DNA of 64,000 nt from Dictyostelium discoideum. Lineage: Eukaryota. The stretch lies in the NCBI GenBank assembly GCA_000004695.1, contig CM000151.3:384001-448000 (forward strand), read 5' to 3'. The first letter of the stretch is position 1; each line of letters begins with the position of its first letter. A program made the position numbers and the translations under genes. Positions 4,777-38,227 of this stretch are shown piece by piece. Under the pieces are notes generated by a model that ran no database searches, was not told the DNA's origin, and worked only from the letters and a program-made list of their open reading frames with translations.

Positions 4777-4886
4777 TATTAAATTAAATTTAATCTAATG
4801 TAAAATTTTAATTGATTGAATAATTTGATAACTTTATATTTATAGTATATTTTTTTTTTTTTTTTTTGAAAGACGATGTCGCCAAA

Positions 4887-5412: not shown

Positions 5413-8448
<3,036 letters not shown>

Positions 8449-8645: not shown

Positions 8646-8700
<55 letters not shown>

Positions 8701-9192: not shown

Positions 9193-12354
<3,162 letters not shown>

Positions 12355-12819
12355 CTAATTTTTAAATAAATTTAATAAATAATAATAAATAATTGTTTTT
12401 TAAAATTATGATAATTTATTATAAATTGATACAAAATAGAATAACCTTTGGCATTGTAATTTATTGGATAATAGTTTGAGTTCTATAGAATTGTAATATT
12501 TGTACTATTTGATTTACCAAATTGTTGAACTTATGACTTTGAAAATTTGATACTCAATATCCTCAGATATATAATCTGATTTTCTAGCTTTTAATCTTTT
12601 TCTTTATATTTTTTTAAATTTTTTTTTTTTTTTAAAATTTTTTTAGTTTTTGATTGATTATTATCATTATTAAATAATTTATATAAATTAAATATTAAAT
12701 GATTAATTTTTTTTTTTTTTTTTAACAAAACCTCGGAACTTAAGAAATTTGCCGAGTTTCACATATGACCCTTTTTTTTTTTTTTTTTTTTTGATTTTTT
12801 TTTTTGTCAATTTGTTTTT

Positions 12820-12850
<31 letters not shown>

Positions 12851-12913
12851 TTTTGATTTTTTTTTGATTTTTTTTTTTGTAGGAAATAAAGATTTTCTTA
12901 ATTTATTTCCAAA

Positions 12914-15967
<3,054 letters not shown>

Positions 15968-16124
15968 AAAATTAGGACTACACTTTCAATTTGATAAATA
16001 AAAATAAAAATAAAAATTTATGTTTTAATTTAAATAGGTTAACAGTGAATTATAAAATAAATAATTTAATAAATAAACAATTGTTTCATCAAATTGGTTT
16101 CTTTATTATTAATCACTCAAAAAT

Positions 16125-16159
<35 letters not shown>

Positions 16160-16223
16160 TAAATTTTATTTATTTTAGTTTTGGTGAATGAGTTTAAACC
16201 AAATTTGTGAGAAACTGTTTCAA

Positions 16224-17250: not shown

Positions 17251-17332
17251 TACACCTGGTAAGAATTGATTATTTTAATATTTAATTTTTTTTTTTATTT
17301 TTTTTAAATTTTTTTTTTTTTTAAGCACCGAA

Positions 17333-19230: not shown

Positions 19231-19903
19231 ATTCAAATGAAAGATTAAAATATTTTTTTAAAGATAACTTAAAATAATAATAATAATAATATTTAGAAAA
19301 AAGATAGAATAAAAAAATAAAGAATTTATGTTTTAATAAATGAAAAAAAAAATAAAAAATAAAAAATAAAAAATAAATAAAAAATTGTTTTTATGAAATA
19401 CAACTATAAATTTAATTGACCAAAAATTAGAATAAATGAAAAAAATAAAATAAAATAAAAATAATCGTTGTAATATAATTGTGTAAATAATAACAATTAT
19501 GTTTTAGAAAAAACTATTTTTATATTAAGATATTACTATACATAAAAATAGATAATATTATTTTAAAGAGAAAAAAAAAAAAATAAAAAAAAATAACAGT
19601 AATGATAACATTCATAGTGCAGTATCAAGATATTTGTATCAATTCAAAAAAAAAAAAAGATAATAAAAAAAAAAAAAAAAAAAAATGCCACGCTGGTTGA
19701 CCCGCCAAAATAAAAAGAAAATATCTTTTTTTTCGAAATCCTATTTTTAAAAAAAAAAAAAATAAAAAACAAATTAAAAAAGATTACACCACAAAAAATA
19801 TTTAAAAAATAAAATAAAAAAAAAAACAAAAATAAGAATTAATATTTTATTTTTATTTTTATATTATTTTTTTAATTACCTACTATTTTTTATTTGTATA
19901 AAA

Positions 19904-19934
19904 ATGAGTAACAACAGTAATAGTAATAATAGTA

Positions 19935-19991
<57 letters not shown>

Positions 19992-22636
19992 TAGTAATAA
20001 ATGAGGATGAAGATGGCAATGAATTAGAGAAAAAGGATTTAAAATCAGTTAAAGAGATTGCTCAATCATATGGTCTATCAACAAACAAATTAAATAAATT
20101 AGAAATCATTGAAAAGATTAAATCAGTTAAAAGAAAAAGAGATTATGAAGAAAAAGAAAATGTTAATTCGTTTAATAAAATTATTAAATTAACAATTACA
20201 GATAATATTGAACCTTCTGAAATACTATTTTGGAAATTATTTAGAAACATAGTAATTTATAAAAAGATATTCTCGTTTATGGATAAACGATTCTCAATTA
20301 ATTATGATTCAATGTCATCAATATCAAATCTTATAAACAATAATCAATTCAATATATTAAAAGAAAAAGTTTATAGAAATTGTAGATATTTACATTTAAC
20401 AACTCACGATTTGTATGATAAAATTAATGATATTTCTTGTTTGGTGAAACTATTTTCAAATATTAAAGATGACTATCAATTCTATAGAAACTTTTTTAAT
20501 AGTGATAATGGTCGTTATCTTTTAGCGACAAACATATCAACAGCATTAATTATATCAAAGAATTTAGAGATTTATAAATTATATATAACTGAATTCAATT
20601 ATGAGCCAACAGAAACAGATCTTATTTATTCAATTATAATAGGTTCACAAAAATTCATTAAATATATATTAGAATTAAATTCATCAAAATCATCGAAATC
20701 ACCATTTTATAATATTAATATTCAAAAATTTTATTTAAATGAATCATCATATTTTAATTTTCAAAAAGATAAAATATTTAAAGGATTACTATTTTATTTA
20801 AATAATAATAGTAAACAAGTATTTACAATAGATAATCTTTATGAATTTATTATTTATAGAAACGATAATGGATATGAAATTAATGAAAAATCAACATTAA
20901 AAACATTAATCACAATTTGTAAATTAATTTTAAAATTATATCCATCACCAACTATTGAAACAAAAACAAGCGAATTATTTAAATCGGTTCCAGATATTCA
21001 AGAAATTAATGGTTTTATTATTGAAAAAATGATTGATAAACAAATTTTAAAATCAAAATTAGATAATCCAATTTATTATAATAATAATAATAATAATAAC
21101 ATTGAAATTAAAAAGTTTATAATTAAATTATTAAATTTATATTATAAAACATTTATATATATACCAACAATTTTATATTTATGTTATTATGATTATGATG
21201 ATAATGAAAATTATCATTACTATTTCAAGCAATTTAATACTGACAAGGATGAACTGGAAATTGCATTTAGATTTGGAGATTTTAAAATTTTAGAACCTCG
21301 TGAAACTATTGATTATAAGAATATTTTACCAAGAGAATATAATTTCTGGGAAAAAGAGAATCATATAGTTTTATTCTCACATTGTTTTAATAAAGAGAAA
21401 AAGATTAAATTCATTGATCAATTGATTGAAAGAAATAATCAAAAGCCAGAATTGAATTTCGAAAATATTGTCTTCAATATGATTGTAATGAATGATGATA
21501 TTGAATTATTAAAATACTTTTCAAATAAAATTGGTTCAATTCTACCAGTCTATATTAATATTTCTGATTTTTCAATTTCTCCAACCTTTTTAATAGAATC
21601 AATTGAAATGTTGGACTATTTATTTAACAATCATAGAAAATACTTTATTGATAGAGAACTTATAAATAATTATAGTACATTTTTTAAAAATGTACAATTA
21701 TTACAACACTTTGAATCGTTATTATCAAAATTTAAACTTGACAATCCGTCGATCATTGAAAAGGATCCAATTCCTTTTATAAAAACTATAGATTTTAGTA
21801 GTATTTTATATTATAAAAAATACAAAGACTTTCTTAATTTTGCAAAACACTTTGCTACAAATTCACTATACAATAATGATGAATTAGATCGTATACAATT
21901 ATTAATATTATTAACTGATGCTGAATTATCATCTAAACAAATGGTCAACACAGAAACACTTGGAAATTTATTAATTTTTCCACACCACAAATCAAATCTA
22001 ATAGATCAAAGATCAAATAAACCATATTCAAAAGAATTTTTAAAATTAATTGAATGGTTATTTAATAACTACAATCATTTAATTGAAAAGGGTGGTCATC
22101 TATATCACAATAAAAAACACCATTACCATCTTCTTATTACACTAGATAGATTAGATCTCAACAACAACAACAACTATTGTTATAATAATATTGAAAAAAT
22201 TACTTACCTAATGGATATAGTAAATAATTCAACACCATTTTTATATGAAGCCAATAATTTTAAATTTTTAAATTGGTTTTTAACAATGATTGAAGATTAT
22301 CATTTTTCATCCAATTCAACAAATAATGATGAAAAATTAAAAATTAAAGCTTTAACAAAATCATTTCTTAACTATATTGTAGGCAATTCAAAATTACAAA
22401 TACTTGAATATGTTCATCAAAACTTTGGTTTCATTTTAAAAAAAGATTCAAATGGTGGAATATTACCAATTAAAGAATTAAAAGAATTCTTAATTTTATC
22501 AATTGGTTCATATTCAAATTTTAGTTCAATTAAAATTTCAGAATTTCTTTTTCAATTTATTACAATATCAAAAAGTGAATTTGAAAAGAAATCAAATAGA
22601 ATATCAAAACTAATCTTTGCAAATAAATTTAATTAA
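19904..22636 (+). CDS. Member 5 of the SAP-like tandem family (910 aa)
   Basis: MSNNSNSNNSS + N18, then ELEKKDLKSVKEIAQSYGLSTNKLNKLEIIEKIKS and the family C-terminal blocks. This is the most divergent intact copy. Confidence 0.7.
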
Positions 22637-22654
22637 AAGAAATAATATCTATTG

Positions 22655-22689
<35 letters not shown>

Positions 22690-22699
22690 TTTTTTTCTC

Positions 22700-22826
<127 letters not shown>

Positions 22827-22924
22827 CAATAGATATTATTTCTTTAAAGAAAAAACATAATAAATTTTGTAAGAATTTTCAAAGTAATAATTATTTCTTG
22901 TAACACTTTTATTATTTTAAATTT

Positions 22925-23452
22925 TCAAACATTTGAATGAGGATTATCAATTTCATACCATGCTTCTTCATTATTATCGTCATCTTTAAACATTTCAATA
23001 AATTTCAAACCTGATTTCTCTAATACTTTTCTTGAAGCTATATGATCTTTGTCAGCAAATGCACATATCTTTTCAATTTTTAAAATATTGAAACCATAAT
23101 TTATAAAGAATTGAGTTGCCTCTGTAGCATACCCTTTACCCCAATATCTCTTAATAAATCTATAACCAATATCATAATATGACTGACGACCATTAATATT
23201 ATTTTCAATTTTTAAACCTGCCCAACCAATAAATTCATTGGTTTCTTTTATTATTACTGCCATACGACCTATTCCATTAAGTTTATATTGATTTTGTATA
23301 CCTTTGATTGCAGCTCTACATTGATCGATATTAGTAACTGCACTTTTTAAATATTGATGAACTTCTTGGTCTGAATCTAATTCAAATAGATTTTCATCAT
23401 CATTGCTTTCTAACTCTCTAAAATAAAGACGTTGGCTTTCTAGTTTCGCCAT
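22925..23452 (-). CDS. GNAT-family N-acetyltransferase (RimJ/RimL-like, Acetyltransf_3-type), intronless, 175 aa
   Basis: GYRFIKRYWGKGYATEATQFFINYGF...ICAFADKDHIASRKVLEKSGLKF matches the GNAT acetyl-CoA-binding motif A (R/Q-x-x-G-x-G/A) and motif B. The ORF is compact with no low-complexity tracts. Confidence 0.75.
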   Translation of the reverse strand: MAKLESQRLYFRELESNDDENLFELDSDQEVHQYLKSAVTNIDQCRAAIKGIQNQYKLNGIGRMAVIIKETNEFIGWAGLKIENNINGRQSYYDIGYRFIKRYWGKGYATEATQFFINYGFNILKIEKICAFADKDHIASRKVLEKSGLKFIEMFKDDDNNEEAWYEIDNPHSNV

Positions 23453-24254
23453 TTTATGTTTGATGATTGCGCAATCATTACTGAAAATAAAAAAAAAAAA
23501 AAAAAAAAAAAATAATTAATAAAAAAAAAAAATTAAAAAAAAAAAAATTGATTTGATATTTTTTTTTTTATTTTTTTTTTATTTTTTTAAATATACTCTT
23601 TCTTTTATATCAACCAAAAATTTAATTCAATTTTCTTAAAACTAATTCCATCGATATTAATATTTAATAAAAAAAAAAAAAATTTAAAAAATGAAAATAA
23701 TTCTTTTCGTTTATTTTTTCATTTTGTTCACAATAAATTATAAATTAATAATAATAATTATTATTTTTTTTTTTTTATTTTATTTTTTTTTTTTTTTTTT
23801 TTTTTAGAAACACACATATACTTGGTTAGATATTTTTTTTTTTTTTTAAAAAAAATTACTAGGGGTAATGATATATGAAAAAATAAAAAATGATTAAATA
23901 TTAATTTTGACCAATCAAAACAATAATTGCAATGATAAACTTTTAAATTTTAATTGGTTGGATGAAATCAATTTTTAAAGACGACCAACTCGTCAGTTTT
24001 TTTTTTTTTTTTTTTTTTTTTCATGAAATCTCGAGATATTAATTCTACAGTTCTTTGAATTCGCTAGAAGATATTATTTTTTTTCCTAAATACCTATCAT
24101 TTGCTTTCTTTTTCTTTTTCTTTTCTTTTTTTTATTTATTTTTATTTTTTTTTTTATTTTTATTTTTTATTTTAATTTTTTATTTACTTTAAAATAAAAA
24201 TTTTAAAATTATTTTTATATTTTTTATTCCTGTGTAGAAATTATAATTCTAAAA

Positions 24255-24520
24255 ATGTATTATAAAATTTTACTTATATTTGCATTATTAATTTTTGTTA
24301 ATATTAATTTTGCTTCTTCTGAATTTAAAAAAAATGGTAATAATTATTTGAAACAATTAAAATATTAAATATATAAACGATTTGCTTTACTGATATTATT
24401 TTTATTTTAAATTTTTTTTTTTTTTTTTTCTTAAAATTAGAAACTGAATCTGCGACTTTAAAATCATTATATGCTAGTTATTTAATGCAAAATAACAATA
24501 ATACTAATTATAATAATACC

Positions 24521-24578
<58 letters not shown>

Positions 24579-24738
24579 GTAATAATACTAATATTTATAA
24601 TGATTCAGTAACAAAGAATAAATGTAAAAATAAGAATGAATTGACAGTTGGTATAATTGGTGGTGGTATTGCAGGTCTTTATGCTGGTATGTAATTTATT
24701 AATGATTATTATAAAATAATTTTTTGAAGGTATTAACC

Positions 24739-24770
<32 letters not shown>

Positions 24771-26625
24771 GTATGATTTTCGATGATTTAGGTATTGATT
24801 ATACAATCTTAGAAGCCAATAAGGAAAGAGTTGGTGGAAGAGTTTATACTCATAAATTTGATGATCATAAATATTCATATACTGATCTCGGTGCTATGCG
24901 TATTCCATTAACGCCATTAATGGATAGAATTGTATCAAACCAAAATTATTCATTATTTAGTAAATTGGCAAAAGGTGGATATCAAATTCCAACTGTACCA
25001 TTTTTAATGAGTGTTAATAATGAAATTAGTTATTATAATGGTATTAGAGTTTTAAAAGGTTCCCCAGTTTTAAATCCATCCGATCCATTTAATTATAGTG
25101 ATTCAAATAATGGTGGTCCAGGAAAAGGTATTCCAGACGAGTATGCAAATCGTACAGTTGACTCTTTAATTCTCCCAGTATTTTATCAATTCATTTACAA
25201 TTTAACAGTTGATTTTGATAATGGTTTTAAACAAATGTTAAAATATGATAGCTATTCTGCAAGAGATTATTTAAAAACATTCCATAATTATCCAAATTCA
25301 GTTGTGAGTATTTAAAAAAAAAAATTAAATTTATTAAAATATATAAATATTAAATTATATTATTTTTTTTATTTATTATTAGATTGATTATATTGAAAAT
25401 TTATCAACAAATACTGGAAGATTAGATCAATCATCTATTACTGAATTATTAATGAGTGTTTTTGATTTTAGTGGAGAAAAATTCGTTTGTGTTGAAGGTG
25501 GTACAGGTCTTATTGTTAAATCAATGAGTCAAATTATAAAGAAAAAAGTTGAAATGGGTAGTTTTGTTACTAAAATTTCAAAATCATATGATAAAAAGAA
25601 TAATGAAATCGATGGATTAAATGTTGAAGTAGTAAGAGATTCAAACTTTGGTGGTAGTGATACTGAAATATTGAAATTTAAACATGTAATTAGTACTACA
25701 ACTTTACCAGCATTACAAAGAATTGATACAAGTGATTTGAAATTACCATTGAAATTAAAGGTTGCAATTCGTTCACTTAAATACACTGGTGCTATTAAAC
25801 TTGCAATTAACTTTAAATATCGTTGGTGGGAAGATAGTGAATTTATGAGTGGTAAACCAATTAGAGGTGGTTCTTCAAATACCGATCTTTTACTTCGTCA
25901 AGTTGTTTATCCATCATATGGTATCAATAATGGTACAAAAGGTGTTAGCGGAGTTTTATTAGCAAGTTATAGTGGTGGTTTGGAATCAATCAGAGTAAGT
26001 TGTGAATAACATTATTATGTTTAAAATAATTAATATTAATTTTTCTTAAATTTTATAGATTAGTAGTATGATTGGTAAAAAAGATAAAGAAAGAAAACTT
26101 TTAAATATAGTTTTAAGAGATCTTGCTGAAATCCATAATGTTGATTTAAAGAAATTAAAAAATTTATATAAAGATCATTTCTTCCAAAGTTGGGATAATG
26201 ATGAATTTGTAAGTATTAAATTTTAATAAATATTTATTTTATTTTTGAAAATATTAATAAATTTTAATTTTATTTTAAAAAAAAAAAACAAATATTAGTC
26301 ATCAGGTGCTTTTGCATTATTTTCAATATCTCAATATACTGAACTTTTCCCAAGTACTGGACAATCACATGTTGATGGTAGATTCCATTTATCAGGTGAA
26401 TTAACCTCGGTTCATCATGCATGGATGATTGGTGGACTTAATAGTGCATATAGATCAGTTGATTTAATTTTAAAGAATGAAGGATTTGAAGATTTACGTA
26501 TCAAATTAAGAAATAATTGGGGCACTATTGAGCAAGCTGAATATCCATCATTAGATTGGTATAAATACGACTCTGATATTAATCATTATAATATTCAAGG
26601 AAAATCAATTGAAAAATTATATTAA
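24255..26625 (+). CDS. Secreted flavin-containing amine oxidase / L-amino-acid-oxidase-like protein, copy 1; 6 exons
   Basis: Exons are 24255-24336, 24441-24686, 24771-25303, 25383-25994, 26059-26208 and 26299-26625. Donors are GTAATA, GTATGT, GTGAGT, GTAAGT, GTAAGT and every acceptor is AG, with consistent phases. The signal peptide is MYYKILLIFALLIFVNINFASS. Exon 2 carries a poly-Asn run. The FAD fingerprint TVGIIGGGIAGLYAG spliced onto MIFDDLGIDYTILEANKERVGGRVYT matches the LAAO/MAO GxGxxG...E..x..GGR dinucleotide-binding motif. The C-terminal GRFHLSGELTSVHHAWMIGGLNSAYRSV matches the amine-oxidase C-terminal FAD contact. Confidence 0.7.
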
Positions 26626-26750
26626 ATAAATCAAAAAATTACCTATATATTGCTAGTTTATTTTCATTCTCATTTTAAGTTTATTTTATTTATTTATTTA
26701 TTTTTATTAGAGGAATTCCTCTTTTCTTCTTAGAAATTAATTAAATTTGG

Positions 26751-26789
<39 letters not shown>

Positions 26790-26790
<1 letters not shown>

Positions 26791-27010
26791 TTTAATTGGT
26801 GATTATGTATTTTTTAAAATTTTTTGGAAGTTAAAATTAAATTTAATTTCTTTTAAATTAAAAATATAATTTAAAATTAAATTAAATATTGATTTTAATT
26901 CATCTAATTCTTTAATTATAATTTTATAATGTCTAATTGATGTTAATGGTGAAGAAAATATATTTTCAAATAAATATTGATTAATTGTGTAACAAGATCT
27001 CAAAAACATC
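26790..27010 (-). pseudogene. Fragment homologous to the 3' part of the F-box-like gene at 31978-33927, carried along with LAAO duplicate 1
   Basis: Minus ORF 26803-27009, ...INQYLFENIFSSPLTSIRHYKIIIKELDELKSIFNLILNYIFNL, is nearly identical to residues ~540-600 of the 649-aa minus-strand protein. Confidence 0.6.
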
Positions 27011-27344
27011 TTGTTAATACTAATATTTATTTAATTTCATGAAATGTTCTAAACAGAACATTTAAAAATAACTATTAATATTGAATTAATAATTCAATAT
27101 TAATTATTACTAATTTAATTTATTTTAATAAATTGTTTCATTTTATATAATAAACTCACTAAACACAACTAAATAATAATTCAAAAAAATAAATAATAAT
27201 AATTTAGAATATAGTTTTGTTTCAACATTTTATTATAACACATACAATTCAGAAAATAATAATAATTTATTTTACTGTTTTGTTTAAAGGGGTTTTCTCC
27301 CGTTGTAATAAAATTTAATTAATTTTAAATTAAATTTAATTTTC

Positions 27345-27379
<35 letters not shown>

Positions 27380-27553
27380 TTTCACAAAAAGGTTTTCATA
27401 ATAGATATTAGATACCAGATATTAAAAATGTCACACAAAATCACCATATAAAATAATAATATAAATTTAAAAATAATTTAATTAAAAAGAAAATAATAAT
27501 TAATTAGAATAAAATTAAAATAATATAATTTTGCAGTTTAAATCGGATCTAAC

Positions 27554-27680
27554 CCTATAGGCTGAGGTTGGAGTAGTTAACAGATTTGAGTTCGCTCAAA
27601 TCTGAGGACTATAAAAAGAAACTAGGTTTCTAATTCAACCTCAGTAATAAATATATACAAATAATAAAATCACGATAGGG
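27554..27680. ncRNA. Candidate structured RNA or palindromic element: nested hairpins including a perfect 10-bp stem capped by a UUCG tetraloop
   Basis: A local GC-richer island in an AT desert. cagatttgag-TTCG-ctcaaatctg is at 27581-27604. It is enclosed by ctgaggttg (27562-70) / caacctcag (27636-44) and by ccctat (27554-59) / ataggg (27675-80). A further agaaac-TAG-gtttct mini-hairpin lies at 27617-27631. No match to U1/U2/U4/U5/U6 consensus sequences that I can recall. Confidence 0.3.
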
Positions 27681-27929
27681 CTACGGTCATCACTTAAATA
27701 TATGTGTACATTTATTTCTTAAAATAATTATTTTATTAAATAATTTATTTTAAAAGGATGTCAACTAATAATAATAATAACAACAATAATAATAATGAAG
27801 ATATTGATAATGATGAATCTCAACAACAGGATAATGAGGAACAACAACTTCAACAACCACAGGTATCAACATTCAATGAACAGCAATGTCAAATAAGGGA
27901 ACAGCAGGAAAAACTAACACTGATGACAC

Positions 27930-28390
27930 TGACCACCAGTTGTTACAAATTGAAATTCGTTCGTAATGTAATTCATCATTATTATTTGAAGAGGTACTAT
28001 ATTCAATGGATATATTCATTGGTAGTGGTGGTGGTCGATGTTGTTTATTATATGAATAAAAAATAAAATCGCTATAAGTTAAATGTAAATACTTAATTGA
28101 TTTATTATTTAATAAATTTGAAAATGAATTAATATTAAATAAACCATGGCAGTCTAATTTTGTTATTTCAATTGATGTATTTAATTATGAAAATAATGGT
28201 TTAAAATAATTTGAAAACATTTCTTTACTTTGATTTATGGTCTTAATTTAATTTTTATTTTTTTTCATCATCACAGTAATCATCCGAACCATATGCACTA
28301 TCACTATGTTGTCTATAATAATGATTGTTAATCAAATCTTCTATTCTAATGTTATATTTAAAATTTTTAAAGATTTACTTGAAATTAATG
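27930..28390 (-). pseudogene. Second decayed fragment of the F-box-like gene (homologous to 32310-32770)
   Basis: High nucleotide similarity between 27930-28070 and 32310-32440, and between 28080-28390 and 32440-32770, with indels and stops. Confidence 0.6.
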
Positions 28391-28407
28391 AATTCATCAT
28401 TTCTTTT

Positions 28408-28438
<31 letters not shown>

Positions 28439-28710
28439 TTTTTTTTTTTTTAAATAAACTTTTTTTATATCAAATTTAATAATTTAATTCAAATTTTCTT
28501 AAAACTAATACCAATTTTAATATTTATAAAAAAAAAAAAAAAAAAAACTAAAAAAAAAGAAAATTCTTTTCATTTATTAAAAATTTTTTATTTTGTTCAC
28601 AAGAAATTAATAATTATTTATATTATTTTATTTTTTTATTTTTTTATTTTTTTTTTTTAGAAACACACATATGCTTGATTAGATTTTTTTTTAAAATTAC
28701 TAGGGGTAAT

Positions 28711-29118
28711 TGTTGAACATTAACACAATAATTTAAATAAATGATTTATTAGTTTAAAATACTCATGTTTTATCAGAATCTTGTAATAGAAAAATAAAAT
28801 TAAATTAAATAAATAAATATATAAATAAAAATAAAGTAATAAGTTGATGTTATCGACAATATCTATAATTTATTATGAATGTTTTTTTATAGTTGAAAAT
28901 TTTTACTTTTTATATTTGAGATTTAAAAATATTTTTATGAGTTTTTCAATCCACATTAAAAACTCACCACGTCGCTTTTTCCCACCTAGGTGAGAAAAGT
29001 CTAATTATATAAACATAAATTATTTTAGTTTGCGAGCGAGATTGTATTCTAATTTAATATCTTGATAAAACATAATTTTATTGTAACAATTTAATTATTA
29101 CATAATTATATTACAACA
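28711..29118. mobile_element. Solo LTR (408 bp) inserted in the promoter region of LAAO copy 2, with a 6-bp target-site duplication GGTAAT
   Basis: Copy 1 reads actaggGGTAATgatat at the homologous point. Copy 2 reads actaggGGTAAT[TGTTGAAC...ATTACAACA]GGTAATgatatg. The insertion starts TG and ends CA, with inverted termini TGTTG/CAACA. Its size is compatible with Dictyostelium Skipper-type LTRs, but family assignment is not verifiable here. Confidence 0.55.
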
Positions 29119-29394
29119 GGTAATGATATGAAAAAATGACCACTCGAAACGATAAATTAAATGGTTGGATGAAATCAATTTTAAAAGACGACCAACTTGT
29201 CAGTTTTTTTTTTTTTAATATTATGAAATCTCCAGATATTATTTCTACAGTTCTTTGAATTAATTAGAAGATTTTTTTTTTTCTATCATTTGATTCTTTT
29301 TCTTTTCTTTTTTTTATTTATTATTATTTTACTTTAAAAATTTTAAAATTATTTTTATATTTTTTATTCCTGTATAGGAATTATTATTCTAAAA

Positions 29395-31679
29395 ATGTAT
29401 AAAAAAATTTTACTTATATTTGCATTATTTATTTTAGTTAATATTAATTTTGCTTCTTCTGAATTTAAAAAAAATGGTATTAAATATTTGAAACAATAAA
29501 AATATTATATATAAAACGATTCAATTTACTGATATTATTTTTATTTTAAATTTTTTTTTTTTTAAAAATTAGAAACTGAATCTGCAAATTTAAAATCGTT
29601 ATATGCTAGTTATTTAATGAAAAATAACAATAATACTAAATATAATAATAATGATAATAGTAATAATACTAATATTTATAATGATTCAGTAACAAAGAAT
29701 AAAAGTAAAAATAAGAATGAATTGACAGTTGGTATCATTGGTGGTGGTATTGCAGGTCTATATGCTGGTATGTTATTTATTAAAAGTATGATTATTATAA
29801 AATTATTTTTTGAAGGTGTTGACTTTTTTTTTTTTTTTTTTTTTTAAATCAAGGTATGATTTTCGATGATTTAGGTATTGATTATACAATCTTAGAAGCC
29901 AATAAGGAAAGAGTTGGTGGAAGAGTTTATACTCATAAATTTGATGATCATAAATATTCATATACTGATCTCGGTGCTATGCGTATTCCATTAACGCCAT
30001 TAATGGATAGAATTGTATCAAACCAAAATTATTCATTATTTAGTAAATTGGCAAAAGGTGGATATCAAATTCCAACTGTACCATTTTTAATTAGTGTTAA
30101 TAATGAAATTAGTTATTATAATGGTATTAGAGTTTTAAAAGGTTCCCCAGTTTTAAATCCATCCGATCCATTTAATTATAGTGATTCAAATAATGGTGGT
30201 CCAGGAAAAGGTATTCCAGACGAGTATGCAAATCGTACAGTTGATTCTTTAATTCTCCCAGTATTTTATCAATTCATTAACAATTTAACAGTTGATTTTT
30301 ATAATGGTTTTAAACAAATGTTAAAATATGATAGCTATTCTGCAAGAGATTATTTAAAAACATTCCATAATTATCCAAATTCAGTTGTGAGTATTTAAAA
30401 AAAATTTAATTTAAAAAAATATATTTATATTAATATTTTTTATTATTAGATTGAATATATTGAAAATTTATCAACAATTAGTGGAAGATTAGATCAAACA
30501 TCTATCACTGAATTATTAATGAGTGTTTTTGATTTTAGTGGAGAAAAATTCGTTTGTGTTGAAGGTGGTACAGGTCTTATTGTTAAATCAATGAGTCAAA
30601 TTATAAAGAAAAAAGTTGAAATGGGTAGTTTTGTTACTAAAATTTCAAAATCATTTGATAAAAAGAATAATGAAATCGATGGATTAAATGTTGAAGTAGT
30701 AAGAGATTCAAACTTTGGTGGTAGTGATACTGAAATATTGAAATTTAAACATGTAATTAGTACTACAACTTTACCAGCATTACAAAGAATTGATACAAGT
30801 GATTTGAAATTACCATTGAAATTAAAGGTTGCAATTCGTTCACTCAAATACACTGGTGCTATTAAACTTGCAATTAACTTTAAATATCGTTGGTGGGAAG
30901 ATAGTGAATTTATGAGTGGTAAACCAATTAGAGGTGGTTCTTCAAATACCGATCTTTTACTTCGTCAAGTTGTTTATCCATCATATGGTATCAATAATGG
31001 TACAAAAGGTGTCAGCGGAGTTTTATTAGCAAGTTATAGTGGTGGTTTGGAATCAATCAGAGTAAGTTGTAAATAACATTGATTAAGTTTAAAATAATTT
31101 AATATTAATCAAATTAATTTTTCTTAAATTTTATAGATTAGTAGTATGATTGGTAAAAAAGATAAAGAAAGAAAACTTTTAAATATAGTTTTAAGAGATC
31201 TTGCTGAAATCCATAATGTTGATTTAAAGAAATTAAAAAATTTATATAAAGATCATTTCTTCCAAAGTTGGGATAATGATGAATTTGTAAGTATTAAATT
31301 TTAATAAATATTTATTTTATTTTTGAAAATATTAATAAATTTTATTTTTATTTTAAAAAAAAAAAACAAATATTAGTCATCAGGTGCTTTTGCATTATTT
31401 TCAACATCTCAATATACTGAACTTTTCCCAAGTACTGGACAATCACATGTTGATGGTAGATTCCATTTATCAGGTGAATTAACCTCGGTTCATCATGCAT
31501 GGATGATTGGTGGACTTAATAGTGCATATAGATCAGTTGATTTAATTTTAAAGAATGAAGGATTTGAAGATTTACGTATCAAATTAAGAAATAATTGGGG
31601 TACTATTGAACAAGCTGAATATCCATCATTAGATTGGTATAAATACGACTCTGATATTAATCATTATAAATTATATTAA
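29395..31679 (+). CDS. Secreted flavin amine oxidase / LAAO-like protein, copy 2 (tandem duplicate); 6 exons
   Basis: Exons are 29395-29476, 29573-29767, 29854-30386, 30450-31061, 31137-31286 and 31377-31679. Intron positions are identical to copy 1 and coding identity is near-complete. Differences: a shorter poly-Asn tract in exon 2, a 24-nt in-frame deletion at the C-terminus (...INHYKLY* versus ...INHYNIQGKSIEKLY*), and a few substitutions such as M>I and Y>F. Confidence 0.7.
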
Positions 31680-31977
31680 ATAAATCAAAAAATTACCTAT
31701 ATATTGCTCGTATATTTTAAGTTTATTTTATTTATTTATTTATTAAAGGAATTTTATTTTTCTTTTCTTCATAGCAATTAAATAAATTTATTAAAACTAC
31801 AAAAGTTATATAGAAAATAAAAAAATAAAAGTAAAAAAAAAGAGGCGACAAACCCAGCGCCGCATAAAATTACTTTTCACCACTTTAATGCTGAAATTTT
31901 TACATCCATGTGTTTTTTTTTTTTTTTTATTATCGAAGAAATTTATTTATAGTAATAAAATAAATTCGGATTATTAT

Positions 31978-33927
31978 TTAATTGGTGAGTATGTATTTTT
32001 TAAAATTTTTTTGAAATCCCAAATTAACTTTGATTTCTTTCAAATTTATGTTGATATTTGTTGGTTTTTGTTGTTGCGTTTGAATTATAATATTATTTAT
32101 TAAATTATCATATTCATTTTTAAAATCATTAATTGGTATTTTAGTATTTTTGATATATAATACTATTGAATATAATTGTAAATTAAAAATATTATTTAAA
32201 ATTAATTTAAATATTGATTTTAATTCATCTAATTCTTTAATTTTACTTTTATAATGTCTAATTGATGTTAATGGTGAAGAAAATATATTTTCAAATAAAT
32301 ATTGATTAATTGAAATTCGTTCGTAATGAAATTCATCATTATTTAAATAAGTATTAAACGTATTTTTTTTCGTTGGTATTGGTGGCGGTGGTTGATATTG
32401 TTTATTATAAGAATAAAAAATAAAATCACTATCAGTTAAAATTAAATATTTAAGTGATTTATTTTTTAATAAATTCGAAAATGTATTGATATTAAATAAA
32501 CCATGACAGTCTAATTTTATTCTTTCAATTGATGTATTTAATTCTGAAAATAGTGGTTTAAAATAATTTGAAAACATTTCTTTACTTTGATTTATGGTTT
32601 TAATTAAATTTTTATTTTTTTCATCATTATAGTAATCATATGAACCACTATCACCATGCTGTCTATAATAATGGAATTTAATTATATCTTCAATATTTTC
32701 ATTACATAATGTTATATTTAAAAATTTTAAAGATTTACTTGAAATTAATGAATTAACCATTTCTTTTAAATTGGAGTTTACATTTTCTGAATGATATTCA
32801 AAATTAAATGAATTAGTTCCAATTTCATTAAATATATCTGATAATATTGAAACTGGTTTAATTGGTATTTTGATTGTATGTAAATTTTGAAATTCACCCA
32901 CTTTTATTAAATTACGAGGTTCAACGAAATCAATATCACCACTATATACTTTAATTGATTCAACTTGTTGGCCTGAATAAACTGGATTGAATAATGTTGA
33001 ATAATTGACATGTGTTTCTAAACTACAATTAATAAAATTTATATTTTTAAATTTGAAATAATTTAATACCTCGAATGAATCCTCATCATAATCATTTTCA
33101 CTTCTAGGTCCATTAATAACTATATTATTAAAACTTAATTCTGTTTGATGATTATTATAGCTTTTATTTATAATATTTTTAATACCATTAATGGTATCTT
33201 CAAGAAGCTCATTTCTAATTTCCATCTCTCTAATATTTAATTCTAAAATTTCAAATAACTTGTATAGTTTATCTTTTTGTTCTTTCGTCATTGTTGATAC
33301 ATATTTAAATATTTCAAATAAAATATCTTGTTTTTTGTCCCCATTTTCATCATAATCTAATACTTCGAAATTAACTAAAATTCTATTATAAATTAATTGA
33401 CCATTTTCAAACTGATTATGAATCGCCTTAAAATCATCAATTGTAATATTATGAAAAAATAAATTCAAACTAAAATAATCATTAATTATCGATTCTTTAA
33501 TTTTAATTATTGAAAATTCATTATTATAATTAATTTTATATAATTTCCTTCTACCATCTTCAAATGTTGAATTAAATATATTATTTTTATTATACTGATT
33601 TTCTTCTTTATTATATATAATATCATTTTTATTAAGGAATGATTCTTTAAAATAATTAATTTTTAACCAATGTTTAAATGATTTATTATTAATAATATTA
33701 TTTGAAATTATTAATGATATAAAATTAAACCATTTTTTTGAAACTAATATATAATTTAATAATTCGTTTCTATTTTTAAAAAATTTAATAAATTTAAATT
33801 GGTTATTATTTTTATTTTTATTACTTTTTAATAAATAATCAATAATTAATTTTAAAATTTCAAAATCAATTATATCTTGAAATATTTTAAAATTATTATC
33901 AACTTTAATTTTTTCAATTGATGACAT
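31978..33927 (-). CDS. Hypothetical 649-aa protein with an F-box-like N-terminus (IFQDIIDFEILKLIIDYLL) and a long Asn/Ile/Lys-rich body; source of the duplicated fragments
   Basis: Single long minus-strand ORF with ATG at 33927. Fragments of it recur at 26790-27010 and 27930-28390. Confidence 0.55.
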   Translation of the reverse strand: MSSIEKIKVDNNFKIFQDIIDFEILKLIIDYLLKSNKNKNNNQFKFIKFFKNRNELLNYILVSKKWFNFISLIISNNIINNKSFKHWLKINYFKESFLNKNDIIYNKEENQYNKNNIFNSTFEDGRRKLYKINYNNEFSIIKIKESIINDYFSLNLFFHNITIDDFKAIHNQFENGQLIYNRILVNFEVLDYDENGDKKQDILFEIFKYVSTMTKEQKDKLYKLFEILELNIREMEIRNELLEDTINGIKNIINKSYNNHQTELSFNNIVINGPRSENDYDEDSFEVLNYFKFKNINFINCSLETHVNYSTLFNPVYSGQQVESIKVYSGDIDFVEPRNLIKVGEFQNLHTIKIPIKPVSILSDIFNEIGTNSFNFEYHSENVNSNLKEMVNSLISSKSLKFLNITLCNENIEDIIKFHYYRQHGDSGSYDYYNDEKNKNLIKTINQSKEMFSNYFKPLFSELNTSIERIKLDCHGLFNINTFSNLLKNKSLKYLILTDSDFIFYSYNKQYQPPPPIPTKKNTFNTYLNNDEFHYERISINQYLFENIFSSPLTSIRHYKSKIKELDELKSIFKLILNNIFNLQLYSIVLYIKNTKIPINDFKNEYDNLINNIIIQTQQQKPTNININLKEIKVNLGFQKNFKKYILTN

Positions 33928-34579
33928 TGTGTATTGATTAAAAAAAAAAAAAAAAATGAAAAAAAAAAAAAAAAAAAAAATTGGTTTTGGTGGTTTGCAA
34001 TTTTTTCAAAAAAATAAAAAAAAAATAAAAAAAATGAAAAAAAAATAAAAAAAAAATAAAAAAATTAAAATCGATTAATTTTATCACTATATTATATATA
34101 TATTCAAAAAATAATATAGTGATAAATTAATTAAAAATAAAAAAAAAATTTAATAACCATACCAGGTGAACAATAAAATCAAAATTATTCTTTCAAATAA
34201 AAATAAAAAATAAAAAATCATGTAATTCAGTTTTTATTAAAAAAAAAAAAAAAATAAAAAAAATAAAAAAAAATCTAATCGAACCAATTAATTGAAATTA
34301 CGAAATAATCTCCACTATCTGGGAACTCTTATCCCAAATTACATTTTTTGTGGTTTTATAAAAAAAAAAATGAAAAAAAAAAAAAGGAAAAAAATAAAAA
34401 AATCTTTTTTTTTTCACAAAATCTTAACAAATCAAAAAAAGTTTTATTTATTTTTTTTAAAATAAAATTTATTTTCATCAGAAAAAAAAAAAAAAAAAGT
34501 TTATTTTTATTTTTTTATTTATTTTTTTTTTTTTTTTTCTGATCAAACATTTTTTCTCAAAATAAAAAAAAAAATAAAA

Positions 34580-37500
34580 ATGAAAGTAATAAATATAATT
34601 TTATTAATAATTTTATTTATTATTAATTGTGAAAATGTAAAATCGATTGATTGTTCATACAAACCAGAAATGATTAAAATTAATTCTTGTAGTCTTCAAG
34701 CAAGTTTGGAAGTACAAGATCAATATTATTCATTTGAAAATGTATATATTGAACCATTTTTACTACCAATTAATAGTGAAAATTCTTTTTATTATAATTT
34801 AAATAATGGTATTGAATATACTTTAAATATTCAAAACAAGGGTTGTAATAATAATGTAACAGAAAAATTTAAACCAACTGGAATGTACTATGAATTAATT
34901 ACTCAACCAAAATGTATGAATACTTTATTTAAATTTAATCTTTTTTATTATTACCTCAATGGAAGTTCAATTACAATCTCGACAAAACAAGGTAATTTAG
35001 AATATTATAATTATGATAAATCATGTAAGGCTAATTTTGTAATTGTTCCTCAAAGTGTAACAAATGGTGTTGTTCAAAATGGTGCTGTGAAAATAGTTAA
35101 TCCAACATGTGGTTTCAACAATGGTAGTATAACTGTTGACTTGACAAAAGGCTATTCAAATGTCCGTTTATTCCGTTTCAATGAAGGTGAATTAGATGAT
35201 GAAGTTCAACCAAGTAATATACCAGGTTCATTTTTGAATTTACCTTATAATAGTTATGTGATTTCTGTAGAATCTGAAGAATGTGGTAATGAAATTGTAA
35301 ATATTGAACTTATTAATACTTTACCTACATTAAATGTTGAAATTAAAGAAGTTCCAAACTTTTTTGAAGATTCAACTTTTTCATTTTCATTATCATCTGG
35401 AGAACAAGGAATTTTAAATAGTACAAATGCTTTTGTTTTCGTTAATGAAAATGACGATGAGCCTATAAGTAATTGGACAGATTATACTGCCCGTTTCACA
35501 AGTGGAACTTTAGAATATGGTTATTATTATAATGTTGATTTTTTACCAGGCAATGAAAAATCATGTGAAACATTCGAATATGTAAATGGAGTGATTCCAG
35601 CATCCGTATTAAAGTATACAATTACAAAACATGGTGATAGTTGTTTAAATGACCTCCTATTGACAGTTTATCAATTTTCCAATAACCCAATTTCTTTGTA
35701 TGATTTCAATGCTGATAGTATGATGACATTTGGGGATGGTGGTAATACAACAGTTATACCATATAATAGAGATTTTTCATTACAAGAGAAATATGCAGGC
35801 CCAACCCAATACTTTTCAACCGTATATAAAGTTCCAACTTATTCACTTGTTGAAACGACAAAAGGAGGTTTAACTGGATGTTGGAGAACTTTTAATATTA
35901 CAATTAATGACTATGAAAGTTTAGGTGATCTAGAATTAGAATTTAATTACAAAACTGATTCTATTTACTATCCAGTAGATGGTGTTTTTATTGATATTCC
36001 AAGTGGTCCTTATAGAATCTCCTATTTTGTTGGAGATTGTGATACTAAATCATATTTCACTATTTTAAATTCTAAAGAAGATGAATGTAATCAAGATGTT
36101 ATATCCACTTCATATAGAATTCTTCAAAATGCTACATGTTCGGAACCTTATGAAGTTGAATTTACAGCATCAACTCCACTTGGTTTGGTTAGTTATAACT
36201 TGAGTGTTTATTCTCTTTCCCATGTTGATGATAGATATGAATTTCCAAATAGTTTAGCTTATGTTGATGTATTATATTATAATCCAAATACTTTAATTTG
36301 GGATGATAAAGAATTTAATATATCTATTGGACATGATGCAAAATGTTCATTCACATATGGTACAATAGAATTAGAAATACCAAATGATCCATATAATCCA
36401 AATATACAATATAATGTAAAAAACGTTTTTGGTAATGATGGTAAACCACTAAGAAGTGCTGGTCCAGGTTTAAATTATTTAATACCACCTGGTGAGAATA
36501 ATTTAATCGTTCAATATTTTTATGGTGGTAATTATAATAACATATGTTATAAATCAAAATCAGTTAACATTAATGCTGAAATATCAATTAAACCACAATA
36601 TACTTCAAATGCTAATACCGATTGTCAAACACCAAATGGTAAAATCATTATATCAAATTATCAAGCATTTACTAATATTACAATTGAATTATCAGATCAA
36701 CAATCATTCATAATTGCAGTTAATGGTGAATTAACCAATCTTAAAGGTGGTGATTACAATGTTTTCTTTGAATCAGAATCATGTAGTGGTTTTGTTACTA
36801 TCAATGTCCCAACATCTGAAGATAATGTTGAAATTGAAACATCAATACTTCAAAATCCATCATGCCTTGTATATTTCTCTCCAGGTAATTCCGATGGTAA
36901 AATTAAAGTTAATGTTAAAAAAGATGGTGTACAATTAGACAATTTAATAGTTTCAGATTTAGCTGATTCACATTCAGATAATAATGTTTTTATTGGTGGA
37001 AAGGTTGGTTTAAATTCATTAATGATTAAATCAGGTAATTGCACTTGGTATAGAGATGTCAATGTTGAAAAAATTGATGGCCCAATGTTTTCACTTGAAA
37101 CTCTACTCAATGAAAGTTGTGGTTGGCCAAATGTTTATAAATTAAATATTGGAAATCCAAATGTCGTCATTAAACAGACTAGTTATTCCGATAGTAATAA
37201 AAACTTTTATCAAGGTTCCTATTATTTTGTATTGTCAAGTAGTACTTCCTATTCCCTTCTACTTCAATGGAGTACAATTTGTTCAGAAAGTTTTAATATA
37301 CCAGCAAAAAATAATATTCAAGATTATCAAGAATATCCAATTCAATATGAAATTGTAAAAGCTGATAATTGTCATTCATTGAAAATTGATATTATTATTA
37401 AAAATATGAATGAATTTTCAACAATGTCAATTTTTAGTAGAGTACCAGAATCAATTAATTCAACACATGCAATTTTCAGAAATTTACCACCAAATAAATA

Positions 37501-38227
37501 TTACAATGTTGAGTATTTAAAAACTAAACCTTATTGTTATTCTTATCAACAAATTGGTGAATATGAAATTTCAAGTGGTTTAACAAAAGAATCTTTAAAA
37601 ATTAAAAAATCAAATGATATGTGTCATAACGGTATTGGTAAAATTGAAATTCAAACTCCATTGGATACTGATAATTATTATTATTCAATGCAAAAGATTA
37701 ATGGTTTAATGTCAGGTGGTTACGAAACAAATACTCATCTCACTAATGATAATGCTGATCAAGTTTTATCAAATTTACCAAATGGTATCTATTATATTAC
37801 TCGTATTTGTAAATCAATTTTAAATTGTTACATTAGAGAAAAGGTTGAAATTATAAGTGAAAATCCATCAATTCAATCAATTACAATTAATCACTCGTAT
37901 AGTAATAAAAACAATGGTACTGTAGAAATTAAATTAAATTATAATACAACTAAATCTGTAACTTTTGAAATCGTAAATACTCAATTATCAAATAATAATG
38001 GTATTTTCTCAAATTTATCTCCAAACAATTATCAAATTAAAATCACTATCACTGATAGAATGTGTCCTGTAACTTTATATGAAAATTTCAGTATCAATTC
38101 AATTCCAACACCAAAACCTGTAGATCCATCTAAAGATCCATCTGATGAACTTTCAACTTCAACTTTAATTCAAATTAATCATTTATTATTATTATTAATT
38201 ATTTTAATTTTAACAATTATTATTTAA
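34580..38227 (+). CDS. Large secreted, N-glycosylated, Cys-patterned surface glycoprotein (1215 aa) with an N-terminal signal peptide and a C-terminal hydrophobic tail (GPI-anchor or TM-like); paralog A
   Basis: MKVINIILLIILFIINCENVKS signal. Many NxS/T sequons. Recurring C...NG.I modules (NPTCGFNNGSITVD, DMCHNGIGKIEIQ, RMCPVTLYENFSI). C-terminal Ser/Pro-rich stalk then LIQINHLLLLLIILILTIII. Intronless. Confidence 0.7.
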   Translation: MKVINIILLIILFIINCENVKSIDCSYKPEMIKINSCSLQASLEVQDQYYSFENVYIEPFLLPINSENSFYYNLNNGIEYTLNIQNKGCNNNVTEKFKPTGMYYELITQPKCMNTLFKFNLFYYYLNGSSITISTKQGNLEYYNYDKSCKANFVIVPQSVTNGVVQNGAVKIVNPTCGFNNGSITVDLTKGYSNVRLFRFNEGELDDEVQPSNIPGSFLNLPYNSYVISVESEECGNEIVNIELINTLPTLNVEIKEVPNFFEDSTFSFSLSSGEQGILNSTNAFVFVNENDDEPISNWTDYTARFTSGTLEYGYYYNVDFLPGNEKSCETFEYVNGVIPASVLKYTITKHGDSCLNDLLLTVYQFSNNPISLYDFNADSMMTFGDGGNTTVIPYNRDFSLQEKYAGPTQYFSTVYKVPTYSLVETTKGGLTGCWRTFNITINDYESLGDLELEFNYKTDSIYYPVDGVFIDIPSGPYRISYFVGDCDTKSYFTILNSKEDECNQDVISTSYRILQNATCSEPYEVEFTASTPLGLVSYNLSVYSLSHVDDRYEFPNSLAYVDVLYYNPNTLIWDDKEFNISIGHDAKCSFTYGTIELEIPNDPYNPNIQYNVKNVFGNDGKPLRSAGPGLNYLIPPGENNLIVQYFYGGNYNNICYKSKSVNINAEISIKPQYTSNANTDCQTPNGKIIISNYQAFTNITIELSDQQSFIIAVNGELTNLKGGDYNVFFESESCSGFVTINVPTSEDNVEIETSILQNPSCLVYFSPGNSDGKIKVNVKKDGVQLDNLIVSDLADSHSDNNVFIGGKVGLNSLMIKSGNCTWYRDVNVEKIDGPMFSLETLLNESCGWPNVYKLNIGNPNVVIKQTSYSDSNKNFYQGSYYFVLSSSTSYSLLLQWSTICSESFNIPAKNNIQDYQEYPIQYEIVKADNCHSLKIDIIIKNMNEFSTMSIFSRVPESINSTHAIFRNLPPNKYYNVEYLKTKPYCYSYQQIGEYEISSGLTKESLKIKKSNDMCHNGIGKIEIQTPLDTDNYYYSMQKINGLMSGGYETNTHLTNDNADQVLSNLPNGIYYITRICKSILNCYIREKVEIISENPSIQSITINHSYSNKNNGTVEIKLNYNTTKSVTFEIVNTQLSNNNGIFSNLSPNNYQIKITITDRMCPVTLYENFSINSIPTPKPVDPSKDPSDELSTSTLIQINHLLLLLIILILTIII

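Follow-up and report, generated by a model that had tools for sequence, protein, structure and literature searches.

A tandem pair of L-amino-acid oxidase-like genes in Dictyostelium discoideum whose flanks appear older than their gene bodies

Introduction

Two genes that lie in tandem in a 64,000-nt stretch of Dictyostelium discoideum AX4 chromosome 2 (hereafter the window) have as their closest described relatives the L-amino-acid oxidases (LAAOs) of fungi. In the first of these, L-lysine alpha-oxidase (LysOX; PDB 3X0V and 7C3H, precursor 7D4C), the substrate backbone is bound by R145, Y446, A552, and W553 and the lysine side chain by F293, W448, F516, D289, D392, and A517 (precursor numbering), and the alpha8-alpha9 loop lies beside the substrate pocket (PMC7844570). 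The second, hcLAAO4 (PDB 9ENH-9ENN), is a broad-spectrum fungal LAAO. The snake-venom and animal LAAOs (1F8R, 1REO) are secreted enzymes that generate hydrogen peroxide (H2O2), and an analogy with them led the original prediction made from this DNA to suggest a role in defence.

The D. discoideum genome is known for its tandem duplicates, and a tandem duplication of this sort is an ordinary gene-family event there. Many tandem gene pairs evolve in concert by gene conversion, which is a general phenomenon of tandem paralogues. Here we describe the duplicated oxidase genes and show that their exons are much more alike than their introns, promoters, and the attached fragments of a neighboring gene. 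The locus belongs to a long-published reference genome; in the literature searched we found no mention of DDB_G0271476, DDB_G0271472, DDB_G0271474, or DDB_G0271478 and no description of a Dictyostelium LAAO.

Results

Two colinear units lie side by side

Self-comparison of the window, which has a G+C content of about 20%, resolved two units of 4.85 kb (A) and 4.34 kb (B) that are colinear, on the same strand, and adjacent, with one junction between them. Their features are as follows.

23561-28407, plus strand: duplication unit A, with promoter, oxidase copy 1, 3' flank, and a truncated DDB_G0271478 fragment split by an insert (blastn self-comparison, per-feature alignment)
24255-26625, plus strand: oxidase copy 1, 649 aa (GT/AG at all boundaries; Pfam PF01593, 3.2e-35)
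26784-26987, minus strand: pseudogene fragment of the DDB_G0271478 3' end, about codons 539-584 plus the stop-proximal part (self-comparison)
26988-27947, no strand: 960-bp insert splitting the fragment, present only in AX4 and strain FIT
27948-28407, minus strand: pseudogene fragment of DDB_G0271478, codons ~389-540 (86% identical to 32308-32767, 63.5% at the protein level)
28408-28425, no strand: junction between the units, in a T-run (sequence read directly)
28426-32767, plus strand: duplication unit B, with promoter, oxidase copy 2, 3' flank, and the 3' 790 bp of intact DDB_G0271478 (blastn self-comparison, per-feature alignment)
28693-29156, no strand: 464-bp insertion in the promoter of copy 2, where copy 1 has ~110 bp (23841-23949)
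29395-31679, plus strand: oxidase copy 2, DDB_G0271476, 624 aa in the present model (GT/AG at all boundaries)
31978-33927, minus strand: intact neighbor DDB_G0271478, 649 aa, single exon, source of the fragment (exact match to XP_645796)

In the gapped self-comparison, the longest block paired 24154-26595 with 29294-31672 at 93.7% identity over 2459 columns including gaps. Upstream of it, 23561-23840 aligned with 28426-28692 at 80% and 23950-24184 with 29157-29368 at 79%; downstream, 26784-26859 aligned with 31970-32046 at 87%, 26851-26987 with 32176-32312 at 96%, and 27948-28407 with 32308-32767 at 85%. The chain of matches from 26614-26694 and 26784-26859 to 31668-31744 and 31970-32046 indicated that homology runs from the oxidase 3' flank into the fragment. 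Homology of the transcription unit begins about 100 nt before the ATG at 24255, and 23560-24254 is promoter rather than exon. The tandem segmental duplication put forward in the original prediction is therefore real, at roughly the coordinates proposed, and its view that pieces of the neighboring gene mark the unit ends was also borne out: those placed at 26790-27010 and 27930-28390 were found at 26784-26987 and 27948-28407.

The six exons of copy 1 (24255-24336, 24441-24686, 24771-25303, 25383-25994, 26059-26208, and 26299-26625; 82/246/533/612/150/327 nt) and of copy 2 (29395-29476, 29573-29767, 29854-30386, 30450-31061, 31137-31286, and 31377-31679; 82/195/533/612/150/303 nt) share identical intron positions, as had been predicted. 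The products are identical at 607 of 624 aligned residues (97.3%). The predicted differences between the copies were all present, namely 51 nt of poly-Asn coding sequence, (AAT)n, in exon 2 (24510-24560 of copy 1), a 24-nt in-frame C-terminal deletion near the stop codon that removes the equivalent of copy 1 26592-26615 from copy 2, and a few substitutions (28 exon mismatches). When polarized, the C-terminal deletion was derived in copy 2, copy 1 keeping ancestral residues and the ancestral C-terminus NIQGKSIEKLY, and the poly-Asn expansion was derived in copy 1. The further claim that the copies are near-identical held only for exons 3-6; in introns, promoter, and fragments, divergence is 7-35%.

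The AX4 protein model XP_645795 (P0001, 630 aa) corresponds to copy 2 plus six extra residues from another intron-2 donor. This model uses a GT donor 18 nt downstream (29761-29790 region), which adds LFIKSM within the Rossmann helix. The six-residue insertion is probably spurious, as the 624-aa model is favored by the annotations of other strains, by the D. firmibasis orthologue, and by the alignment with LysOX; in an AlphaFold2 model of the 630-aa protein, the predicted local distance difference test (pLDDT) score drops under 50 at residues 100-104, which cover the downstream end of the insertion and the positions directly behind it. Neither the exact 649-aa product of copy 1 nor its variant in strain FIT (T54N) was found in the protein collection searched.

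Flanking sequences look older than the gene bodies

Identity between the copies depended strongly on the part compared. Exons 3-6 were 98.7-100% identical and exons 1-2 were 95% identical, and the exons overall differed by 1.5%. Introns showed 6.9% mismatches (27/394) plus indels, and the last 101 nt before the ATG were 83% identical. The alignable proximal promoter had 13.5% mismatches (31/230), the distal promoter was 65-80% identical and carries the 464-bp insertion in copy 2, and the neighbor-gene fragment differed from its source by 11.3% (75/663). Promoter counts come from the proximal ~230-nt block only; a whole-promoter MAFFT alignment misaligned the distal part of copy 2.

To place these values, we compared seven loci from six assemblies, representing five distinct lineages. 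By gene body, the AX4 copies are each other's closest relatives: they grouped at 100% bootstrap in a neighbor-joining (NJ) tree, synonymous divergence (dS) was 0.028 between them as against ~0.10 to FIW and FIR, 0.135-0.16 to FIY and FIZ, and 0.50 to D. firmibasis, and 13 derived sites were common to both copies versus 12 unique to each. The fragment gave a different picture. It carries one of the 11 derived substitutions of the AX4 neighbor gene, falls outside the clade of AX4, FIW, and FIR orthologues in an NJ tree (92.6% bootstrap), and is equally distant from those three orthologues (0.104, 0.105, and 0.099). The ratios of shared to unique derived sites, 13:12 for the gene body and 1:10 for the fragment, differ (Fisher p = 0.025); about half of the fragment sites would be expected to be shared under the gene-body ratio, and the binomial probability of one or fewer in 11 is 0.004. 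The proximal promoter of copy 2 is likewise about as far from copy 1 (31/230 mismatches) as from the copies labeled FIW_b (26/217) and FIR_syn (29/211), or 12-13.7% for the latter two, and has 5-7 derived states in common with the neighbor-adjacent FIW and FIR copies and two with copy 1. The 6.9% intron divergence between the copies approaches the 7.8-10.1% between AX4 and FIW, and two of the amino acid changes of copy 2, D289E and N297I, also occur in the neighbor-adjacent FIW and FIR copies.

We therefore hold, with moderate confidence, that the duplication is an older one whose gene bodies were later homogenized. Judged by the non-genic flanks, it would have happened at about the time when the AX4 lineage left the FIW and FIR lineages, or earlier, and gene conversion or unequal exchange between the copies would since have kept the gene bodies alike in a form of concerted evolution. 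In the FIW pair, a Sawyer-type run test detected a conversion tract at 24431-25009 (P = 0.0002), which shows that conversion does act on this locus in that lineage.

The original prediction took the duplication to be young, and a single recent event, with all differences arising since in the absence of gene conversion and with the flanks behaving as unconstrained low-complexity DNA, would account for the sister grouping and low dS of the gene bodies, for the colinearity of the units, and for their single, simple junction. It would leave unexplained why the fragment shares so few derived sites with its own source and stands no nearer to it than to the FIW and FIR orthologues, why the promoter of copy 2 has more derived states in common with other lineages than with copy 1, and why intron divergence nears that between lineages. 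We regard a recent origin as doubtful and, on balance, unlikely.

Several observations weigh against an older, homogenized duplication and must be set beside those above. The run test was not significant for the AX4 pair (P = 0.49), which is what a recent duplication without conversion would give, and we infer conversion in this pair only from the contrast between body and flank. With introns as the yardstick, the excess in the fragment is less than two-fold (6.9% versus 11.3%, p = 0.018). The AT-rich, low-complexity flanks are difficult to align, a pseudogene fragment accumulates changes faster than the functional gene it came from, and long-branch attraction may inflate the basal position of the fragment. 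The counts are also small, with 11 informative sites in the fragment and 25 in the gene body. Finally, the junctions in other lineages differ, so that there may have been independent duplications instead of one old event. A further idea, that over the gene body copy 1 is the orthologue of FIW_a and copy 2 that of FIW_b, was rejected, as the trees carried no such signal; the hints in its favor are limited to a few shared sites in the promoter and close to the beginning of exon 4.

The genes encode predicted fungal-type L-amino-acid oxidases

The LAAO-like flavoenzyme named in the original prediction was recovered by sequence and by fold. The protein matched Pfam PF01593 (Amino_oxidase) at 3.2e-35 (122.7 bits against a cut-off of 19.8) over residues 104-599 and the full profile (1-443 of 443), with a further match to NAD_binding_8 (1.4e-06). 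Among PDB sequences, the best match was Trichoderma viride LysOX (7c3i, 1.8e-70, residues 97-612), followed by Hebeloma cylindrosporum hcLAAO4 (9enh, 1.4e-64) and then by snake-venom LAAOs at about 1e-28. The AlphaFold2 model, made for the 630-aa AX4 copy 2 protein, reached a pLDDT of 82.1 and a predicted template-modeling (pTM) score of 0.84. In a Foldseek search of the PDB with this model, ranks 1-45 were all LAAOs or related amino-acid-oxidizing flavoenzymes (ranks 43-45 being an oxidase/monooxygenase and tryptophan 2-monooxygenase), and the top match was the LysOX precursor 7d4c (E = 7.2e-44, template-modeling (TM) scores 0.74/0.78, 609 aligned columns), so that the three-domain LAAO fold was recovered.

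Residues expected to bind flavin adenine dinucleotide (FAD) and the substrate backbone are conserved. Both copies carry the GxGxxG Rossmann motif VGIIGGGIAGLYAG, in which G106 is invariant and G101 and G103 are at least 90% conserved among 46 homologues; R153, K426, Y483, and W583 are invariant in the same set. For comparison with LysOX, we subtracted the 77-residue propeptide from the precursor numbering and read the equivalent positions off the sequence alignment. LysOX R68, Y369, A475, W476, F216, F439, and A440 have the same residues in the Dictyostelium protein; the first four align with R153, Y483, A582, and W583 of copy 1 and are unchanged in copy 2. The LysOX side-chain recognition residues D212, D315 (via waters), and W371 are replaced by Ser312, Gly422, and Gly485. 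The printed alignment has Ala at the D212 and D315 positions because chain 7c3i is the D212A/D315A mutant. None of these FAD- or backbone-binding positions differs between copies 1 and 2. We read the proteins as L-alpha-amino-acid oxidases of the fungal LysOX/hcLAAO4 type, with an activity predicted from sequence. As all FAD- and backbone-binding residues are kept, each copy should oxidize L-amino acids, and as the lysine-recognizing residues are replaced, lysine specificity is not expected. Once in the secretory pathway, both would then yield keto acids, ammonia, and H2O2 from L-amino acids.

The N-terminus reads M-Y-(Y/K)-K, followed by 16 hydrophobic residues (mean Kyte-Doolittle 2.65) and the polar stretch SSEFKKNETES, which suggests a signal peptide and a probably secreted protein. 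The original prediction of a secreted enzyme thus agrees with the signal-peptide-like N-terminus, while secretion itself stays a prediction. After this segment comes an extension of about 75 residues, with a predicted helix at 34-52 (pLDDT ~66-69) and then a disordered poly-Asn tract. The model scored below 50 at residues 53-68 (the poly-Asn tract) and at 612-630 (the C-terminal indel), and as both indels between the copies lie in such predicted disordered segments, they probably matter little. We also noted a paralogue in D. discoideum strain FIR (P0007, 1080 aa), about 47% identical, in which an extra N-terminal FAD-oxidoreductase region of ~480 residues (DAO-like, PF01266) is fused to the LAAO domain, an unusual two-oxidase architecture.

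Copy 2 changes amino acids at a near-neutral rate

We polarized the coding differences with six outgroup sequences, leaving out three columns disturbed by the C-terminal indel. The copy 2 branch had 14 nonsynonymous and four synonymous changes and the copy 1 branch three and six (Fisher p = 0.039), with ratios of nonsynonymous to synonymous rates (omega) of ~0.9 and ~0.13, respectively. The rate in copy 2 differed from the orthologue background (p = 0.002) and did not differ from neutrality (p = 0.77). Copy 1 is under purifying selection, and copy 2 changes amino acids at a near-neutral rate. Of the 14 derived changes in copy 2, six are in the pre/pro region, which is poorly conserved, and eight in the mature enzyme. 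Four of these eight (D289E, N297I, T298S, and S304T) fall within 16 residues that correspond in the alignment to the alpha8-alpha9 loop of LysOX; such clustering near the predicted substrate pocket is suggestive, and this domain is also the least conserved.

The original prediction suggested that the expansion could be adaptive, and one may imagine copy 2 diverging in substrate specificity under positive selection into a neofunctionalized, defensive secreted producer of H2O2. The excess of amino acid changes in copy 2, their clustering at the loop, the intact open reading frame (ORF), splice sites, and catalytic residues of this copy, and the presence of several oxidase copies in varied arrangements in three lineages (AX4/FIT, FIW, and FIR) are what this idea would lead one to expect. 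An omega that cannot be told apart statistically from that of neutral drift, the six changes in the pre/pro region, the loss of the GxGxxG motif from the equivalent copy in FIW, and the single copies in two other lineages fit birth-and-death turnover without selection, and we consider adaptive divergence of copy 2 quite improbable.

The locus takes several forms in related lineages

Within the D. discoideum complex, we observed at least four architectures of the oxidase locus. AX4 and FIT have the tandem pair with the neighbor-gene fragment. In FIW, the order is GNAT, oxidase, a piece of the 5' half of the neighbor gene (equivalent to window 33341-33638), GNAT, oxidase, and neighbor. In the neighbor-adjacent FIW copy (13990-16260 of locus L001), most of exon 2 (about 120 nt, the GxGxxG motif among them) is gone, with a frameshift as the result; its annotated 579-aa product is probably that of a pseudogene. 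The copy FIW_b groups with FIR_syn at 100%, so the FIW duplication predates the split of FIW from FIR, and FIR has since lost one copy. Besides its syntenic copy, FIR carries a second one in inverted orientation at a distance of about 11.6 kb, taken as the gap between the two segments compared on that contig. This inverted copy and its flanks (9143-16275 of locus L002) are 93-96% identical to the FIY haplotype and 83-92% identical to the FIR syntenic locus, and are nearer to the FIY haplotype in every segment; it is an old paralogue, or else the segment was introgressed. FIY has one oxidase copy, and FIZ has one plus a separate neighbor-gene fragment. The orthologue in D. firmibasis (10001-12225 of locus L007) is a single copy of four exons without introns 4 and 5, its last exon of 1092 nt being the equivalent of exons 4-6, and its neighbors are a methyltransferase and an RRM protein, so that synteny is lacking.

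These forms amount to birth-and-death turnover of a locus prone to duplication. One could go further and see in the oxidase locus a structurally hypervariable hot spot, where repeated gain, homogenization, and loss, and a fast copy 2 with changes grouped at the substrate funnel, reflect diversifying selection on a secreted H2O2-generating enzyme directed against bacteria or competitors; we offer this as speculation to which we give little credence.

The arrangement in FIZ (locus L006) runs GNAT, one oxidase, a fragment equivalent to 31970-32621, and the full neighbor gene, and raises the question of a two-step origin in AX4, in which the 3' end of DDB_G0271478 was duplicated first and the oxidase was copied in later. 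Old flanks with younger gene bodies would follow naturally. In AX4, however, homology is continuous from the oxidase 3' flank into the fragment, so that gene and fragment look like one copied block, and the promoter of copy 2 is old as well. The FIZ fragment, moreover, is 0.198 from the FIZ gene and 0.233 from the AX4 fragment and so is probably a separate event, and the two fragments have no junction sequence in common. A two-step origin is very unlikely.

That the two copies are an assembly artefact, a false expansion of one gene, had only the difficulty of assembling AT-rich low-complexity DNA as a prior ground for suspicion and can be dismissed, since artefactual copies would be identical and these have 55 substitutions and several indels between their gene bodies and far more differences in the flanks, two further assemblies have two-copy arrangements, and the assembly of strain FIT (GCA_054883475.1), in which the locus (L005) sits on a 3.6-Mb contig, runs colinear with window 19356-38000 and reproduces the whole structure, with both oxidase copies, the fragment, and both inserts in place and with six substitutions and 39 gap positions in 18,645 columns. 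As FIT is nearly identical to AX4, this is an independent assembly and not an independent lineage.

The junction carries a short T microhomology

The parental right edge reads ...CATTTCTTTT on one side and AAATTGGAG on the other, the parental left edge lies within a long T-tract, and the junction reads ...CATTTCTTTTTTATTTTTTTTTTTTTAATTTT... The right edge (32764-32767) and the T-tract at 23559-23590 have a TTTT microhomology. No long direct repeats were found at the parental edges (23500-23640 and 32720-32860), where there was a T-run only, and classical unequal crossing-over between repeats is therefore unsupported. Of the two mechanisms named in the original prediction, template switching fits the ~4-nt microhomology, and unequal crossing-over is disfavored by the lack of long edge repeats. 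The copied block comprised the oxidase promoter and body plus the 3' third of the convergent neighbor DDB_G0271478. Template switching or end joining at a T microhomology of about 4 nt would have made the join, unless it stems from a later deletion. Because DDB_G0271478 lies on the minus strand, it was its 3' end (codons ~389-649) that was copied. The sequence favors a microhomology-mediated event or a secondary deletion as the origin of the junction; should the larger unit seen in FIW be the ancestral one, the AX4 junction could be the scar of a later deletion.

The neighbor gene, its fragment, and the insert

DDB_G0271478 had been described as F-box-like, a label that did not survive: its 649-aa product matched no Pfam family, F-box included, at E <= 10. 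The fragment at 26784-26987 has a deletion of ~130 bp relative to 32047-32175. The 960-bp insert has no homologue elsewhere in the window, nor in loci L001-L004, L006, and L007. A search for a transposon origin found no second copy of either the 464-bp or the 960-bp insert in the window or the related loci.

Within the 960-bp insert lies a GC-richer structured element of about 140 nt (27546-27688, plus strand) with nested long stems and a perfect 10-bp hairpin closed by a TTCG loop (-47.8 kcal/mol, z = -5.27 against shuffles). It gave no Rfam match and has no second copy in the window or related loci, and it may be an unannotated noncoding RNA or a small element with inverted repeats. A low-complexity ORF (27758-28066, plus strand; 102 aa unspliced) begins within the insert and crosses the pseudogene fragment in antisense orientation. 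It was called as a 111-aa gene in strain FIT (8370-8821 of L005); the call is spurious, or else the ORF is a chimera that arose de novo.

Surroundings of the locus

Upstream of the oxidase pair lies the following gene.

22925-23452, minus strand: upstream neighbor DDB_G0271470, a GNAT acetyltransferase (Pfam Acetyltransf_3, 3.7e-30)

Its product is exactly AX4 XP_645792, which, with the exact match of XP_645796, places the locus on the 8.48-Mb record of AX4 chromosome 2. This gene is outside the AX4 duplication and inside the duplicated unit of lineage FIW, judging by the gene order in L001. The present order in AX4 is GNAT, oxidase 1, the dead 3' fragment of the neighbor, oxidase 2, and the intact neighbor.

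Immediately upstream, at 5458-22636, is a tandem array of five units of about 3.7 kb with mutual identities of 78-87%, several of which carry ORFs of ~900-1040 aa (e.g., 5314-8448, 12914-15967, and 19904-22636). The two ORFs scanned, 12914-15967 and 19904-22636, had no Pfam domain. This array is older than the oxidase duplication, which thus adjoins a duplication-prone gene family. Farther upstream, a 642-aa ORF that encodes an aspartyl protease domain of retroviral type (8e-11) stands between two identical 268-bp direct repeats (2515-2782 and 4887-5154). A tRNA-Val gene on the minus strand (2412-2486) has its 5' end 29 bp from the start of the left repeat; the region 2412-5154 looks like an internally deleted long terminal repeat retroelement inserted beside a tRNA gene. 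That tRNA gene is the only one in the window, the duplicated region having none, and Rfam gave no match at E <= 1 in window 22000-35000. The first 2000 nt of the window have 40% G+C and a strong GC skew (0.36), against ~20% G+C elsewhere, and the minus-strand ORFs there (873-1730 and 1754-2116) had no Pfam match.

Discussion

If the duplication is indeed an older one with homogenized gene bodies, exon similarity understates its age, and to date tandem duplicates by coding identity alone can mislead in AT-rich genomes. For two hypothetical Dictyostelium genes, the analysis also provides a concrete, testable identity, that of a predicted fungal-type LAAO that should lack lysine specificity. In a social amoeba that feeds on bacteria, the enzyme, if active and secreted, would be a candidate effector that produces H2O2, and its variation in copy number and structure among lineages would be natural material for questions of dosage or specificity.

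Like other tandem paralogues that evolve in concert, the AX4 copies group by genome and have flanks that look older than the gene bodies. The related FIW pair also has a significant tract, and the AX4 pair differs in lacking a discrete one; homogenization in AX4 would need to have covered the whole gene body or to be old enough for its tracts to have blurred.

As to the enzymes, the snake-venom and animal LAAOs have the fold and the carboxylate-binding Arg/Tyr pair in common with the Dictyostelium protein, but at 22-25% identity they are far more distant than the fungal enzymes, and the analogy with them is silent on a role in an amoeba. LysOX is the best match by both sequence and fold, with the same three-domain architecture. 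It is made as an inactive precursor, with a cleavable propeptide whose helix sits between the helical and FAD domains; the Dictyostelium protein likewise has an N-terminal extension before the Rossmann strand, in which a helix is predicted. Identity to LysOX is only ~30%, the residues that give LysOX its lysine specificity are replaced, and the Dictyostelium extension, unlike the LysOX propeptide, holds a poly-Asn tract and follows a putative signal peptide. hcLAAO4 belongs to the same clade and ranks second by fold as well as by sequence (~5e-43, TM scores 0.70/0.83, for the fold), at ~29-30% identity. Without the LysOX specificity residues, the Dictyostelium enzyme may be functionally nearer to the broad-spectrum hcLAAO4 than to LysOX.

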